Of a stretch of DNA of 64,000 bases, positions 8,477-61,771 are shown piece after piece. A model generated the notes under the pieces. That model made no database searches, was not told where the DNA came from, and worked only from the letters and a program-made list of their open reading frames with translations. Each line of letters opens with the position of its first letter. The first letter of the stretch is position 1. The position numbers were made by a program, and so were the translations under genes. Source of the stretch: Octopus vulgaris (taxonomy: Eukaryota); assembly GCA_951406725.2 (NCBI GenBank), contig OX597829.1:620001-684000 (forward strand). The letters are read 5' to 3'.

Positions 8477-9048
8477 TAATAGAAATATTAAAATTACTAA
8501 GTCTCTCTAAAGGAGATTACGGCAGCGTTACTGGATATTAATAGTTATCGCCATACTAATATGGCAGTCTATAAATAAGACTAAAGCTGTCGCTGATTAG
8601 CTCCAAGAGGCCATCGCCTCTAGCTAGCTATATGAAACACGATCCTGCGTCCATTACAACCTTCGAACAAGGGAGGTCAGCCGCTTCGCCTTGCTAGTCA
8701 GACATCTGCAGACATGTTTCAGGGTTGTTGCCCTTTATCAATGCAGCGTAGTCAGAACCAGCAGATGTCGCTACTGACCGTCTGTTCGAAGATTTTATTT
8801 ACCTAGTTACAGTGGAATACATCCACTTGTTTTCAGTAATAGAAATATTAAAATTACTAAGTCTCTCTAAAGGAGATTACGGCAGCGTTACTGGATATTA
8901 ATAGTTATCGCCATACTAATATCGAAGGTTGTAATGGACGCAGGTTCGTGTGTCATATAGCTAGCTAGAGGCGATGGCCTCTTGGAGCTAATCAACGACA
9001 GCTTTAGTCTTATTTATAGACTGCCATATTAGTATGGCGATAACTATT
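8477..9048 (-). mobile_element. Retrozyme/Penelope-type element: 360-bp monomer, 86-bp tandem re-start and 126-bp inversion
   Basis: 8477-8562 matches 8837-8922; 8923-9048 is the near-identical reverse complement of 8540-8665; flanked by (TA)n; contains a hammerhead. Confidence 0.8.
8706..8746 (-). ncRNA. Minimal hammerhead ribozyme, U3:A8 variant
   Basis: ctgca-TTGATAA-aggg caacaa ccct-GAAAC-at-GTC-tgcag; stems I and II fully paired, palindromic stem III. Confidence 0.8.
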
Positions 9049-9061
9049 TATATATATATAT

Positions 9062-25196: not shown

Positions 25197-25852
25197 TGTT
25201 GAGAGAGAAATAGAGATTATTGTGGCGGTAGTGATGAAGATCGTGATGATTGAAAAAGAAGAGGAAAACAGAATTAACTGAGGAAGGATGAGGGGACAAA
25301 CGGCATGGGAGAAGCGAGAGAGAATGAGAGAGGGTGGAGAGGAGAGAGGTGCAGGAGAGAGGGAGAGAGGGATTCAAGCTGAGTAAAAAAAAAAAATGAA
25401 CGAGAGCGAGAGTAAGGTAAATTCAAAATAAGTTGAAATTTAAGAATTCTTTTGAATTCTAAAAGAATGTGAGAATGAGATTTTGGAAAATTAGATGTTG
25501 TGGGAGGAGAGTACTTAACAGAGTGATTGAAAGAACAAGATTGAAAGAGAAAGGGGAAATATACACGCTAAGTGTTAAATGCATGTTTAAATGTGATATA
25601 TAGACTAATATGTCGATTTATATGTAGCAGGACATAATCACCGCCGTACACAAACTGCACATTATGTTGCCTCTGAGAACAAGAGAATCCATAAAGCAAG
25701 GACTTTGGAACAATACAAACACCAACACATCTTTGTTTCGACATTCTTACTAAATGTAGGAGGCATCAACCCACCACTCTATGCTCTCAAGAATGGAAGA
25801 CCACATGCATCTGAGAATTGGTTTGCTGAAATGAAACGCTGTATCCTTCTTT

Positions 25853-26216
25853 CATCATCATCATCATCATTGTTCGACCATGTCGAGACAATGGAATTTA
25901 CTATGTTACGCCAGACTTCACGGTCCATCATGGCATTACGGAGGTCCTGTTGCTGGATGCCTGTATCCCTGGAGATTACATCAGGGTAGGAGAGTGTGCA
26001 CCCTCTGGTATCGCGAGTAGATGGCTTCCAGAGGAGAAGAGGAGAAATTACCTCGTTTTCAGCTCTACAACAATGTCCAGCAAACTGGACTCTTCCACCT
26101 TTCACAAGAGATGATACAGGTGGTAGTTTCCCATATATTTGTACTTTGGTTGGATGACGCTTCCACGAGAGATTTTGAGCTCTCATAAGGAGGCGAGTGT
26201 AAGTTCCATCCAACCT
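25853..26216 (-). mobile_element. RTE-like LINE 3' fragment with (GAT)n tail
   Basis: LDGTYTRLLMRAQNLSWKRHPTKVQIYGKLPPVS...FAGHCCR...LLLWKP...AMMDREVWR, typical of an RTE-type C-terminus; ends in tgatgatga repeats. Confidence 0.85.
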
Positions 26217-27235
26217 TCTTTACATCTTCACGGAAACCCACCAAGACAATTCCAATATGGATACCGACTGAAAAAAAATCTCCATCATCCATGCAGACCA
26301 CACTGGCAGAAATAAAGGAAGAGCAGCCATTTTTATCCATGATTCCTTTTCTGTGAATGTTAAAGACATATTTTCCAATGAATACTGTGAATCTATGTTA
26401 CTATACAACAAATTTATTGACATAACCATATTTGGTCGCTATATGATTCCTCAAACTCTTCTACAATTCTTTCAATGGTGCCTCCAAAAAGTCAAGTCTT
26501 CCCTCCAAAAGCACAACTCAGGAAACATAAATGATGGGTGATTTTTAATCTTCCTTATATGAAGAGCTCCACAAATACCCTGAAACCGGGTAACCTCATC
26601 TCGACACCAGATAAAACAGCAACAGAATTACTATTTATTTTCATGAATGGAATTTTTTTTTTCCTACTTATAGCTTCAGCCAACAAGTCAAGACAAAATT
26701 ATTTTAGTTTGTTAAGGTTATTTCTACAGACATTCTATAGAAATGATAACCAGCACTGATTTTTTCCACAGCGTTCCATATACGATACGTCAGATGTAAA
26801 CAATGAAATTTTAGGCCTGATATTAACAAACTACTCAGCATTTCCGATGAAAAAATCTCAGTTCTCTGACCAAGATATGATACTCTGCAACTCTAGTTTC
26901 CGACATACCAAAGCCAAACCAGCCACTCTCGCCCCAGTGCATCCGTTCGACAATATCTATCTTTACAAAGCGGGCTGGAGAGCAATTGGAGCGGATCTGT
27001 CATTTAACGACTGGTCATTCACTCACAGTTCTTCTGATAGTGAAGCAACTTGGTAGCATTTTGAGAACCGTTTCACCCACACATGTCCAAAGCGAGCCAC
27101 TGTGAAACTCACAAGCACAAACTGAAGATCGTAAGAGAGAAAGAAAATTACTTACCAAGAAAATTTTAAATATAAAAGAACAAAAACAAAAAACAATTGA
27201 AATGCTACAACCAACAGCATCCATAAACAACAGCA

Positions 27236-27592
27236 GTGGAGGCGCAATGGCCCAGTGGACTCGCGGTCGGAGGATCGCGGTTTCGATTCCCAGACCGGGC
27301 GTTGTGTGTGTTTATTGAGCGAAAACACCTAAAGCTCCACGAAGCTCCGGCAGGGGCTGGTGGCGACCCCTGTTGTACTCTTTCGCTCCAACTTTCTCTC
27401 ACTCTTTCTTCCTGTTTCTTGTCCCCGACTTCCTATGCAACCGCTGAGCCTGGATGCATATTCATCCATCCGTCGATGCTCTCGGTGTCGGGGGTTGACC
27501 TGCTTTCTCTTCTGCGAGTCTTACGAATAGTAAAGGACCACGTTTCGGACTTCTCCCACTGGGACGAAGACCGCTTCGCTCAACAAGCAAAC
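27236..27592 (+). mobile_element. tRNA-derived SINE family D with 11-bp TSD
   Basis: gtggaggcgcaatggcccagtgg...ggtttcgattcc; TSD aaacaacagca at 27225-27235 and 27593-27603. Confidence 0.88.
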
Positions 27593-27619
27593 AAACAACA
27601 GCAATAAGGACACTTAAAT

Positions 27620-28523
27620 GCCAAAAATATCTGCAGAGGTGCATGAAAGCGAACAGTAATAACTGTAGACGAAAAATAATTTTTAAAAAAAATCAAACAC
27701 AACCCCAAAGTCTCCTTTTGATTTACCAACAAACATTGGACTGCTGTTTCATCCACTGATGGATGATGATAACAGGATTCTAGCAGAGATCCTGCAGAAA
27801 CACTATATCTCTGTCTTTAGGGATCCTATTGACTTTAAAGGCGGTGAGCTGGCAGAATCGTTAGCGCGCCGGGCGACATGCCTAGCGGTATTTCGTCTGT
27901 CGTTACGTTCTGAGTTCAAATTCCGCCGAGGTCGACTTTGCCTTTCATCCTTTCGGGGTCGATAAATTAAGTACCAGTTACGCACTGGGATCGATGTAAT
28001 CGACTTAATCCCTTTGTCTGTCCTTGTTTGTCCCCCTTTATTTTTAGCCCCTCGTGGGCAATAAAAAAATATATTGACTTTGACATGAAATAGTTCAACG
28101 CATTCAACCCCAAACATATTTCTGACATAGCTTTCACTGCCTCGGGCATGATCGTACCAATAATTAAAACGAAATATCATTCTGCAGTAATCCCTGATAG
28201 ATTCCCTCCTTGTGTCTTGAAGGAATGCAGACATCCCTTGAAACCAACTAATGGATAACATCTTTTCACTCGGGCTATATACCCAAACATTTCTCTTCTT
28301 AGTCTTCAGGAAAGGAAAACAGATTTCTTGCAGTTAACTAACGCCCAATTAAACTCATCTCTCACACCATCAAGGTATTTGAAAGGGTTGTGAGGACAAA
28401 GATAACTGGCTTCCTGGAGAGTAAAAAATCATCTAAAGTTTTCGTTGTGGCAGAAACTGCCCAACACAACTTTTACCTTACAATAATGATACCCTTAAAG
28501 TCTGGGGAGATGGTTCGAACTCT
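27620..28523 (+). pseudogene. Decayed CR1/Jockey-group LINE reverse transcriptase fragment, interrupted by a SINE
   Basis: ILAEILQKHYISVF; N*RPIKLISHTIKVFERVVRTKITGFLES (NYRPISLTS..K.FE motif); FRCGRNCPTQLL (GFR.GRSC..QL motif); stops and frameshifts. Confidence 0.8.
27840..28071 (+). mobile_element. SINE family A with TSD
   Basis: Full-length copy; tattgacttt at 27827-27836 and 28072-28081. Confidence 0.92.
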
Positions 28524-29080
28524 GTAAAAAAGTATGAAAACACCTAATTCGTTCAGTGTTGCCGTCTCTCAGGAATCTCAGACATCGATGTTTCGAGTTT
28601 TTTGACTCTTGTCAATGCGATGTACCTAAGAGAGACAACTCTGAACGAACTTAATAAAGCTGTAGCTTTATATATATAATTCAGTCAACACGTCGACTGA
28701 TTTGCGCGAGGAAGAAGAACCCGTTCAAATTAATTAACGGAGCAGAGGCGCAAAACAGTGTTTAGGTAAAAGCAGAATGTTGTCACATATTTCAACTGCT
28801 AAAGGCAAATACACTGCAGTTACCCGCTATAGCTTTATTAAGTTCGTTCAGAGTTGCCTCTCTTAGGTACATCTCATTGACAAGAGTAAAAAAACTCGAG
28901 GCATCGATGTCTGAGATTCCCGAGAGATGGCGACACTGAACGAACTGGGTGTTTTCACACCTTTTTACCATAAGAGGAACATTTTCTCCACATTAACATC
29001 ACTGTATTTGCCTTAGCAATTTCAATTAACCTAAATTCTGCTCATACCAAAACACTGCTTAGCGCCTGTGCTCCGTTAAT
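28524..29080. mobile_element. Retrozyme-like element: inverted, circularly permuted ~320-nt units, each with a U3:A8 hammerhead
   Basis: 143-bp inverted arms 28524-28666 and 28826-28968; about 29000-29080 is the reverse complement of about 28733-28815; hammerheads at 28575-28621 (-) and 28871-28917 (+). Confidence 0.8.
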
Positions 29081-29751
29081 ATATATATATATTCTTTTCT
29101 ATTTTTATTTAAATTCTTCTTTTGGTTTCCAACAAAGATATAAAGCTCCTTTATAGAAAACGAAAACAATGTCACATTTTAAACCCGAGAAAAGCCTTGC
29201 ACAATTTTCCTGTTCCGTTTGTTGAATTCTTTTTCTGAAAATCCCAGCTTATCCAGAGTAACAGTTAAAACCAAATGCTCCAATTATTATTGGTATAAAT
29301 GTAAATTTGTAATCCAGATATAGAAGTTGGAAGTTCTGAAGCAGTTGTCCATAGTTTTCTTCTTTCTCTTTCCTTTTCAGAGATATTTACATCAGCAGGA
29401 CAGCCGACCTCTACATCAGCAGGACAGCTGACCTCTATGACGATGCATAGTTTTTCTTATCTCTCTCAAACAACAATACCTGGCCTCTTATTCTTTCACT
29501 TACAGCTGTTTTTATGGGAATGTTCCACAAGTATTCCTTGTACTGATATTTGCGTACGTATTCAATAAGAGGTGGATTCTCTATATTTACTATATTTACT
29601 CCAATGTATAATGGAATAATTATACACTGTTTTTGCAACAACGCGTAGGAAGGTAGTACCCTGTTGACATTTTTGAGCAGTTGTTAATCACGTGTGTGAT
29701 TATCTTCCACAGAAATATTATATAATCTACACATCTTGGAACTCATGCACG

Positions 29752-30185
29752 TATTTTGTTGGCCAAAAAGTTCGTTCGCAATTTTAAGGGGAAATAAGAC
29801 ACAAGTTTTAAACGTAAAGCGATTTATTCAATCAATGATATATTCACCGTTTCCTTCCAGTATCTTCAGGCATCTAATGGCAGATCCATTATTCCCTGCT
29901 CAAAGAATTTCCTGTCTTTACTGACGAAGAAATATTCCACGGGAATATTTTTAGTCTATTCAGTGATTTGAAGAGACCGAAACATGTAGAAATCTGGAGG
30001 TGCAAGGCCGGACAAATACTGAGGGTGAGGCAAAACTTCCCAGCCAAGCCCCAGTAGCAGCAACCGTGTCTGCCAAGAGGTATGCGGTCTGGCATTGTTG
30101 TATGAAAGACAACGCCCTTACGATTAGCAAGTGCTGCACGCTTCTGGCGGATCGCTGCGTTTAATTTGTCCAACTTGGCACCGTT
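29752..30185 (-). mobile_element. Mariner DNA transposon 3' remnant
   Basis: AIRQKRAALANRKGVVFH and, in another frame, HPQYLSGLAPPDFYMFRSLQ (HPPYSPDLAPSDY.LFRSLQ motif); TIR-like ttggccaaaaagttcgttcg. Confidence 0.85.
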
Positions 30186-30432
30186 CACAACCAAAGCGGA
30201 CAACTTGCCTACCAATCTACTTGAAACTTTTTCATTTTTGTCCCCAGTTTAGTCTACAGAAATCTTTATACCATTTACTTATTTATTTGACACAATAGGA
30301 AGTGTTATACGCCCTACTTTTTATTTCTTATATATACGTTCTTGATAATGAATTGTAAAACACAGAAATTAAAAAAAAAAATTTATATCTTTATAATGTT
30401 CATTTTGTTTATTTCCTTTTTAAGGCTCTAAA

Positions 30433-61329: not shown

Positions 61330-61580
61330 GTTTGTCACATATTTCAACAGCTGAAAGGCAAATTCACTGCAGTTACTGTGAAGAAAGATTCTCTCTTATG
61401 GTGAAAATGTCTAAAAACGTTTTTTTCTATTATTATCAAAATGAAGCATCCTGAACGCATTTCTAGCTCTTTAGTCATTATCAATGGGAAGTACCGAAGA
61501 GAGGCAACTTTGGACAGTCTTAGTGAAAGGCATAGCCTTAACTAAAGCACAGTCAACATTAACTTAGTTGCGCATTTAGA
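61330..61580 (-). mobile_element. Diverged copy of the 28.5-kb retrozyme family
   Basis: ttgtcacatatttcaac.gct.aaaggcaaat.cactgcagttac and tcaatg.ga.gtacc.aagagag.caact match 28780-28823 and 28612-28640; keeps TTGATAA core on the minus strand. Confidence 0.65.
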
Positions 61581-61771
61581 TCGCCATGTCGGAAGAAATT
61601 CAGTAGTATTTCCCATTGGTAACGGCTTTAAGAAAAAAAAAATAAACAATAGGATCATTTAAGTAGTTTATAGTACTATTGGCCCTACATCGGAGAGAGA
61701 CGATCTTTGATCAAAATTACAAATTACAAAGAGCTTGACGCTCTTTATATTATGTATAACAGTGAAGATGT

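Follow-up and report, generated by a model that had tools for sequence, protein, structure and literature searches.

The locus at 28524..29080 of the window, the whole 64,000-nt stretch of Octopus vulgaris DNA analysed here, is probably a decayed two-armed insertion of an old, dispersed, non-coding repeat of 340 nt, which carries a family-wide type I hammerhead motif with a U3:A8 core and is likely a non-LTR retrozyme, with a Penelope-like element as its carrier and (TA)n as its target. It represents a new family of a known kind that, we infer, works like a Penelope-borne non-LTR retrozyme, with respect to cleavage, circles and the identity of the carrier.

Architecture of the locus

The locus contains two inverted arms, at 28524-28666 and 28826-28968, which are oriented away from one another. 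Each is 143 nt long and they differ at 13 positions, close to the 143 bp and about 12 differences given in the preliminary description; their match (E 4e-53) is beyond chance. All the hammerhead parts that had been listed for each arm were found: TTGACAA as the 5′ core box, GTC, a palindromic loop 3 and two of the stems, stem II with 4 bp and stem I long but interrupted, the box before loop 3 being GAAAC in the left arm and GAGGC in the right one. The left hammerhead has an intact core and a single stem I mismatch. The core of the right one carries G at 14 and at 15.1, which is a private decay, as among 114 copies of the family 111 have A14 and 104 have A15.1. The hammerhead call at the locus is based on motif, stems and covariation; Rfam returned no hammerhead on the locus at E ≤ 10, and none among the 150 of 338 matches listed for the whole window, those listed being microsatellite-like miRNA. 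Since canonical descriptors and Rfam miss these motifs, families of this kind are undercounted.

The segment 3′ of the right ribozyme (28994-29080) corresponds with 78% identity to the segment 5′ of the left one (28822-28733). The circular permutation originally claimed is therefore present here, and other copies are likewise permuted windows on one ring-like unit; it is not a free permutation, the 3′ ends lying in two fixed zones. Both arms have lost 19-21 nt of one hairpin, and this loss accounts for the apparent unit of 320 nt described earlier, the actual monomer being 340 nt. There is no ORF at the locus, where the longest stop-free stretch is at most 66 codons. A transcript of the whole locus is predicted to pair both arms as one long duplex (-270 or -282 kcal/mol), in which neither hammerhead motif could form according to the model. 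With its right core broken and its arms locking each other, the locus copy is predicted to be dead.

Table 1. Coordinates in the window of the locus, its neighbours and related repeats (m, monomer position; end zones E1 and E2 are described in the text)
Feature	Positions	Strand
Left (inverted) arm, m339 to m314, with a deletion of 19 nt; does not reach the usual end zones	28524..28824	-
Left type I hammerhead with U3:A8; core box at 28615-28609, GAAAC at 28594-28590, cut predicted after 28581	28575..28621	-
Right arm, m172 to m107, 21-nt hairpin deletion, end in distal zone E2	28826..29080	+
Right type I hammerhead; core box at 28877-28883, GAGGC (decayed) at 28898-28902, cut predicted after 28911	28871..28917	+
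Extended stem I around the right hammerhead, about 33 bp including bulges	28843..28944	+
(TA)n run at the right end, likely target remnant	29081..29093	+
9-nt block (m137) that exactly matches one conserved 59-62 nt upstream of the genome's U2 genes	28695..28703	-
Old LINE ORF2 remnant, neighbour, about 68% identical to other copies, SINE-interrupted, cut at the arm junction	25672..28523	+
Sister family C copy with its U3:A8 core box at 61484-61478	61330..61600	-
Unrelated young 360-nt two-armed hammerhead repeat, U3:A8 core at 8741, for comparison only	8480..9053	-

A dispersed family of 340-nt repeats

A search of the same genome gave 1105 first-look candidates, 40 of which were scored; 110 loci were read, and 100 were left once overlaps were merged by coordinate. 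The majority sequence was built from segments of at least 80 nt, and ends were counted on segments of at least 40 nt. The majority monomer is non-coding and has 340 nt and 39% GC (the retrozyme criterion is about 170-400 nt and GC under 45%), with natural repeat periods of 329-343 nt. In the numbering used here (m), the core begins at m223 and the predicted cut falls after m257. The separate retrozyme-type family that had been suggested is supported.

The copies are dispersed over many contigs with stereotyped ends, and their median divergence from the subfamily majority is 9%, CpG sites decaying about twice as quickly as other sites. Copy lengths range from 0.2- to 1.9-mers, and 45 of the 100 distinct loci are two-armed. 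More than one monomer is covered by 42 of 167 segments, the longest having 648 nt; two tandem hammerheads occur only in L051 and L058, both decayed, and no long arrays or multimers were found among the 100 loci read. The family is old, because it is also present in contigs from four DNA-sized runs that bear four organism labels. Four runs guessed to be RNA gave contigs with diverged family pieces, which speak neither for nor against expression and are uninformative on strand, ends and circles.

The U3:A8 core and the C4 lineage

In the majority sequence the core boxes and three stems make up a type I hammerhead motif. When positions 3, 4, 7 and 8 were left open in the search pattern, 80 genome matches were obtained and tallied by hand: U3 is present in 74, A8 in 77, both in 71 and C4 in 25, while C3:G8 is absent. 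Backwards patterns, as controls, gave 0 matches versus 51, 99 and 80 with the real patterns. Copies chosen by their 3′ half alone (n=44) have U3 in 40 and A8 in 43, and the 114 aligned motifs have U3 in 102 and A8 in 109, with four gaps at each position and no C3:G8. In the four DNA-sized runs, whose contigs were aligned to a U3:A8 reference, changes at position 3 all represent less than 3% of the depth, A8>G 2-9% and U4>C 6-15%. These genome-wide counts bear out the claim that U3:A8 is conserved in the family and is not decay. As a novelty U3:A8 does not stand, since it has been published (PMC3088659, PMC4209133), in PMC3088659 as a natural, active covariation, and it is also found in the 360-nt family of the window and in autonomous Penelope-like elements.

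The same counts decide on the proposal that the inverted arms come from DNA-level fold-back or satellite turnover and that U3:A8 is a decayed C3:G8. Hairpin deletions in both arms and the faster decay of CpG sites would agree with it, but C3:G8 at 0/80 and 0/114 refutes it for the core, and dispersed copies with stereotyped ends speak against the rest, so that we give it practically no weight.

The C4 variant is found in 14 of 20 copies of subfamily B versus 2 of 41 of subfamily A (p 1.6e-7), the subfamilies being defined by seven sites other than position 4. Judged by this distribution, C4 is a founder state and not decay. It is located in a CpG that decays towards U4; as to the direction U4→C4, the tree is too noisy, and the site table is compatible with one gain or with a gain plus reversion. 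The C4 lineage is the only somewhat surprising part of the family, and U4C is known from a viroid, with reduced activity in vitro (PMC3088659).

Predicted folds

The majority circle has a minimum free energy of -117.5 kcal/mol (z -10.8 versus 100 shuffles) with 68% of its nucleotides paired. Its predicted fold is branched, with 8-9 hairpin loops and one long stem closing a multiloop, and the rod-like circle that had been expected is abandoned. The active fold is predicted to lie 4.5 kcal/mol above the minimum in the monomer and 2.8 kcal/mol per ribozyme in a tandem dimer paired via a 10-nt palindrome; the corresponding values of the young 360-nt family are 6.0 and 4.5 kcal/mol. The modelled energies would fit dimer-dependent cleavage. 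The subfamily majorities would fold differently at m223-257: the model pairs the 5′ core box of A with stem II/loop 2, and in B this helix is abolished by C4 and a change in loop 2, the core box perhaps pairing with loop 3 instead. In the model the A and B cores would possibly be two different off states.

Sister family C and the young 360-nt family

The third copy in the window, described before as a diverged one that keeps U3:A8, does keep it, and it belongs to a sister family, C, 81% identical to the locus family; degeneration has affected its cleavage triplet and the 3′ strand of stem I. Family C comprises 2497 candidates, and among its copies (n=29, L123 being left out of the tallies) U3 is present in 27, U4 in 29 and A8 in 29. 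Its stem II has been rebuilt, and when the majorities of both families are compared five stem I pairs are changed on both sides. Such two-sided changes around a kept core are the strongest indication that the fold was under selection during the spread of these families. In family C (L111-L140) an extra base is found on either side of the 4-bp stem II, C/U opposite A, and the stem III loop has 2 to 6 nt and is mostly palindromic. The young 360-nt family has 2706 candidates, with copies 95-98% alike and U3:A8 in 25 of 28 motifs.

LINE junctions and a candidate promoter

The LINE reverse transcriptase remnant reported next to the left arm was confirmed: its relatives align right up to 28524, and one of them matches RVT_1 at E 1.7e-30. 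Its 3′ part is absent from the window, and the simplest reading is that this part and the end of the left arm were lost by a later deletion. On the other side, a frameshifted C-terminal remnant at 29110-29700 (minus strand), whose 3′ end abuts the TA run of the right arm, is by its motif presumably a restriction-like-endonuclease LINE, and a fragment at 29892-30250 (minus strand), with no Pfam match, is one that we take, also by motif, to be a mariner transposase. Pfam and Atlas searches with the window's own flank fragments gave nothing firm.

That LINE remnants flank the locus would suit a SINE-like element that owes its mobility to a LINE such as the neighbour, with the inversion due to L1-type twin priming, which also yields head-to-head inversions. 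We consider this origin very unlikely: the repeat has neither poly(A) nor a LINE-like tail, its outer ends fall at fixed internal zones, and the LINE, about 32% diverged from its relatives versus 9% for the repeat family, is a neighbour and not the carrier.

A different LINE lineage is joined to other copies of the repeat. Eight segments start at exactly m205 versus 0.5 expected, and seven of them are preceded by related LINE tails (L003, L042, L059, L067, L071, L086 and L095); such tails are also found at the U2 start in L226 and L233. Among copies starting at m180-210 the tail at m205 is the only long shared upstream flank found. Over 1053 nt, one m205 upstream flank shares 75% identity with the element ahead of two U2 genes, and the m205 flanks give weak zf-RVT and zf-CCHC matches; by their motifs we assume the tails to be Tx1-like.

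The 9-nt block shared with the U2 genes (Table 1) is a candidate snRNA-type promoter core, and suggestive only. One subgroup has a second U2-type block 31 nt before the m137 block. From the 21 invariant U2 columns, L018, a natural copy, has 16 (2/300 shuffles, a significant match), the majority 14 (71/300, not significant), subfamily B 15 (18/300) and family C none, and the LINE site is placed 68 nt behind the promoter-like block versus about 55 at U2. An snRNA-type promoter inside the monomer is plausible on this resemblance. The U2 genes themselves (L221-L255) have three promoter types, with two common blocks 31 nt apart, and some U6 genes share part of the U2 proximal block.

Ends, targets and template

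The 3′ ends of 130 of 167 segments lie inside m30-120, and 67 of those 130 are at a (TA)3 run; such a run occurs overall at 68 of 167 3′ ends versus 15 of 167 5′ ends. Two modes are observed, at m65-75 (E1) and at about m107 (E2), 35-40 nt apart. The arms of the 45 two-armed loci combine E1 with E2 in 24 cases, E1 with E1 in four and E2 with E2 in none, the remaining 17 having an end elsewhere. At the locus under study the right arm ends at E2 in the TA run and the left one stops at m314, not at E1. The 5′ ends are scattered and show no pile-up at the cut site (5 of 167 versus 8.3 expected), and the cut site is read through in 30 of 38 segments chosen downstream of it. Run-through of the cut site and copies longer than one monomer imply a circular template or an uncleaved multimer, both fitting the data. 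The permutation would then result from fixed priming combined with 5′ truncation at random, on a template of either sort.

The same element and carrier could therefore have been copied from linear, uncleaved read-through transcripts of tandem copies, with a weak or dispensable ribozyme and no circle. An uncleaved multimer explains the run-through and the long copies equally well, and the U4C lineage was amplified though this change lowers activity in vitro (PMC3088659). For the anole element, unprocessed RNA is described as the main substrate and hammerhead mutants as having no effect on insertion in vitro (PMC11167929), and 8 of 9 frog retrozyme dimers are reported not to cleave (10.64898/2026.07.22.740005). 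Nevertheless, over a 19% split the core has been retained and the stems carry two-sided changes, the 100 loci read contain no tandem source arrays, and 5′ ends hardly accumulate around the predicted start (17 of 160 at m182-207 versus about 12 expected, the 7 LINE-joined copies being left out). On balance we regard copying of linear transcripts as a real but minor possibility.

An excess of 5′ ends at m35-55 (18 of 167, p 0.016; among the long copies, 13 of 42) coincides with a 13-bp hairpin and is more readily explained as a stop of the reverse transcriptase or fold-back. A promoter at m313-330 with its start at m35-55, which had been considered, was rejected: by eye, the genome's U2/U6 upstream regions have no such block there. 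A single template for both arms was not retained either. Rare variants are common to both arms within loci in 11.6% versus 4.1% between loci, figures inflated by subfamily structure, and the arms of the locus share none (0/15).

A probable Penelope-like carrier

A Penelope-like element of this genome has an intact ORF of 765 amino acids with RVT_1, a Cys linker and GIY-YIG. The 20 Penelope-like loci (L171-L190) comprise the young family with the intact ORF and an older sister, with the hammerhead near the 3′ end, and U3:A8 is found in 27 of 27 of their motifs. The elements end in TA runs 67 or 105 nt past the cut site, both ends being used, one per arm, in L176 and L178. This 38-nt offset matches that of E1 and E2, which constitutes a footprint common to the repeat and the element. 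Penelope-like elements are described as leaving inverted 5′-truncated copies and a 30-40-bp tail (PMC8557442), and two-strand cutting and two internal start sites of reverse transcription have been reported in vitro (PMC11167929). Penelope carriers have already been proposed for non-LTR retrozymes (PMC7229834; 10.64898/2026.07.22.740005; PMC6765202).

The intact family is far younger than the repeat copies. No ORF with reverse transcriptase and GIY-YIG is joined to the repeat at the locus, and where upstream sequence was read in other copies it is more monomer or a LINE tail. Comparison by blastn with the 30 GIY-YIG loci found by Pfam gave no significant link (best E 0.16). A kinship of the T-rich motif after the hammerhead with the Penelope tail was considered and not kept as proof: the 36-nt offset is the same, but 122 of 1000 shuffles do as well in the comparison with the older element, and 379 in that with the young family.

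It could be argued that the repeat is a pLTR or a 3′ fragment of an extinct autonomous Penelope-like element and not an independent retrozyme. The end footprint and the core equal those of autonomous elements, a similar T-rich motif stands 36 nt past the cut site in both, and retrozymes are published as derivatives of pLTRs (10.64898/2026.07.22.740005). In contrast, what lies upstream of the hammerhead is more monomer, with periods of 329-343 nt, the sole long shared upstream flank found among copies starting at m180-210 is the LINE tail at m205, and the GIY-YIG loci gave no blastn link. A pLTR or fragment appears improbable on these grounds.

Taking a retrozyme carried by a Penelope-like element as the preferred reading, we propose the following model. 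Tandem founder copies would be transcribed, possibly from the internal snRNA-type promoter, with a start near m196-205. Two hammerheads would pair via the 10-nt stem III palindrome and cut out a monomer, which would be ligated into a circle. The GIY-YIG endonuclease would cut both strands of a TA run, the reverse transcriptase would prime one arm at E1 and the other at E2, and both cDNAs would be joined head to head. At the locus, the end of the left arm would later have been lost together with the LINE 3′ part, and the right core would have decayed. Points that weigh against the model are the scarcity of tandem hammerheads, the lack of a significant sequence link to the sampled Penelope-like elements and the youth of the intact family, the active fold lying above the predicted minimum, the anole hammerhead mutants, the 0/15 rare variants common to the arms of the locus, its left arm not ending at E1, and the non-significant promoter match of the majority.

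Relation to known systems

The literature searched on cephalopod hammerheads and retrozymes and on core variants describes neither the family nor a U3/C4/A8 core, although supplements (PMC4209133, PMC3088659, PMC7229834) may list them. As described in PMC7229834, metazoan non-LTR retrozymes measure 350-390 bp in mussel and 330/350 nt in axolotl, and the family resembles them in the type I hammerhead, the non-coding unit of about 340 nt, the 39% GC, the self-paired predicted circle and a palindromic stem III suited to dimer cleavage. It differs from them in having U3:A8, and partly C4, and in being dispersed, often two-armed, old and decayed. The min-HHRs of Cercyon Penelope-like elements of Schistosoma mansoni, with U3:A8 and about 1300 matches (PMC4209133), have in common with the family the core swap, the Penelope association and opposite-strand motif pairs 100-700 bp apart, whereas in the locus family the tandem monomer is protein-free and combines a long stem I with a stem II of the canonical 4 bp, U4C being added in one lineage. 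EN+ Penelope-like elements of Neptune/Nematis-type domain order, as presented in PMC8557442 and PMC11167929, agree with it in the inverted 5′-truncated arm, the partial tandems, the two ends 35-40 nt apart and the TA targets, U3:A8 being present in this genome's own element; the repeat differs by lacking an ORF and any significant sequence link to the sampled elements.

The family is an old, decayed case for Penelope copying of animal retrozymes, with the carrier footprint and the core state in the same genome, and its value lies mostly in annotation and as a test set. The U4 and C4 sublineages form a natural pair for probing the role of cleavage in amplification: a dead C4 core would make the ribozyme dispensable, and a live one would mean that hammerheads tolerate more core variation than search descriptors assume. 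A bolder reading, which we hold to be rather unlikely, is that the U3:A8+C4 hammerhead is catalytically active in nature and sustained a retrozyme lineage of its own during amplification, and that U3:A8 marks one Penelope lineage from which several retrozyme families of this genome were seeded, all of them copied from circles, at two fixed sites, and bearing an snRNA-type promoter exploited by Tx1 LINEs.

Newt satellite 2 (as cited in PMC2220036) is a hammerhead repeat of about the same size with an internal snRNA-type promoter, a feature that is suggestive only in the octopus repeat. Among Tx1-clade LINEs, Keno is inserted in U2 genes and Tx1 in Tx1D (PMC4494074); here one LINE lineage is found at m205 and at U2 gene starts, the m205 insertion belonging to other copies and not to the locus at 28524..29080.
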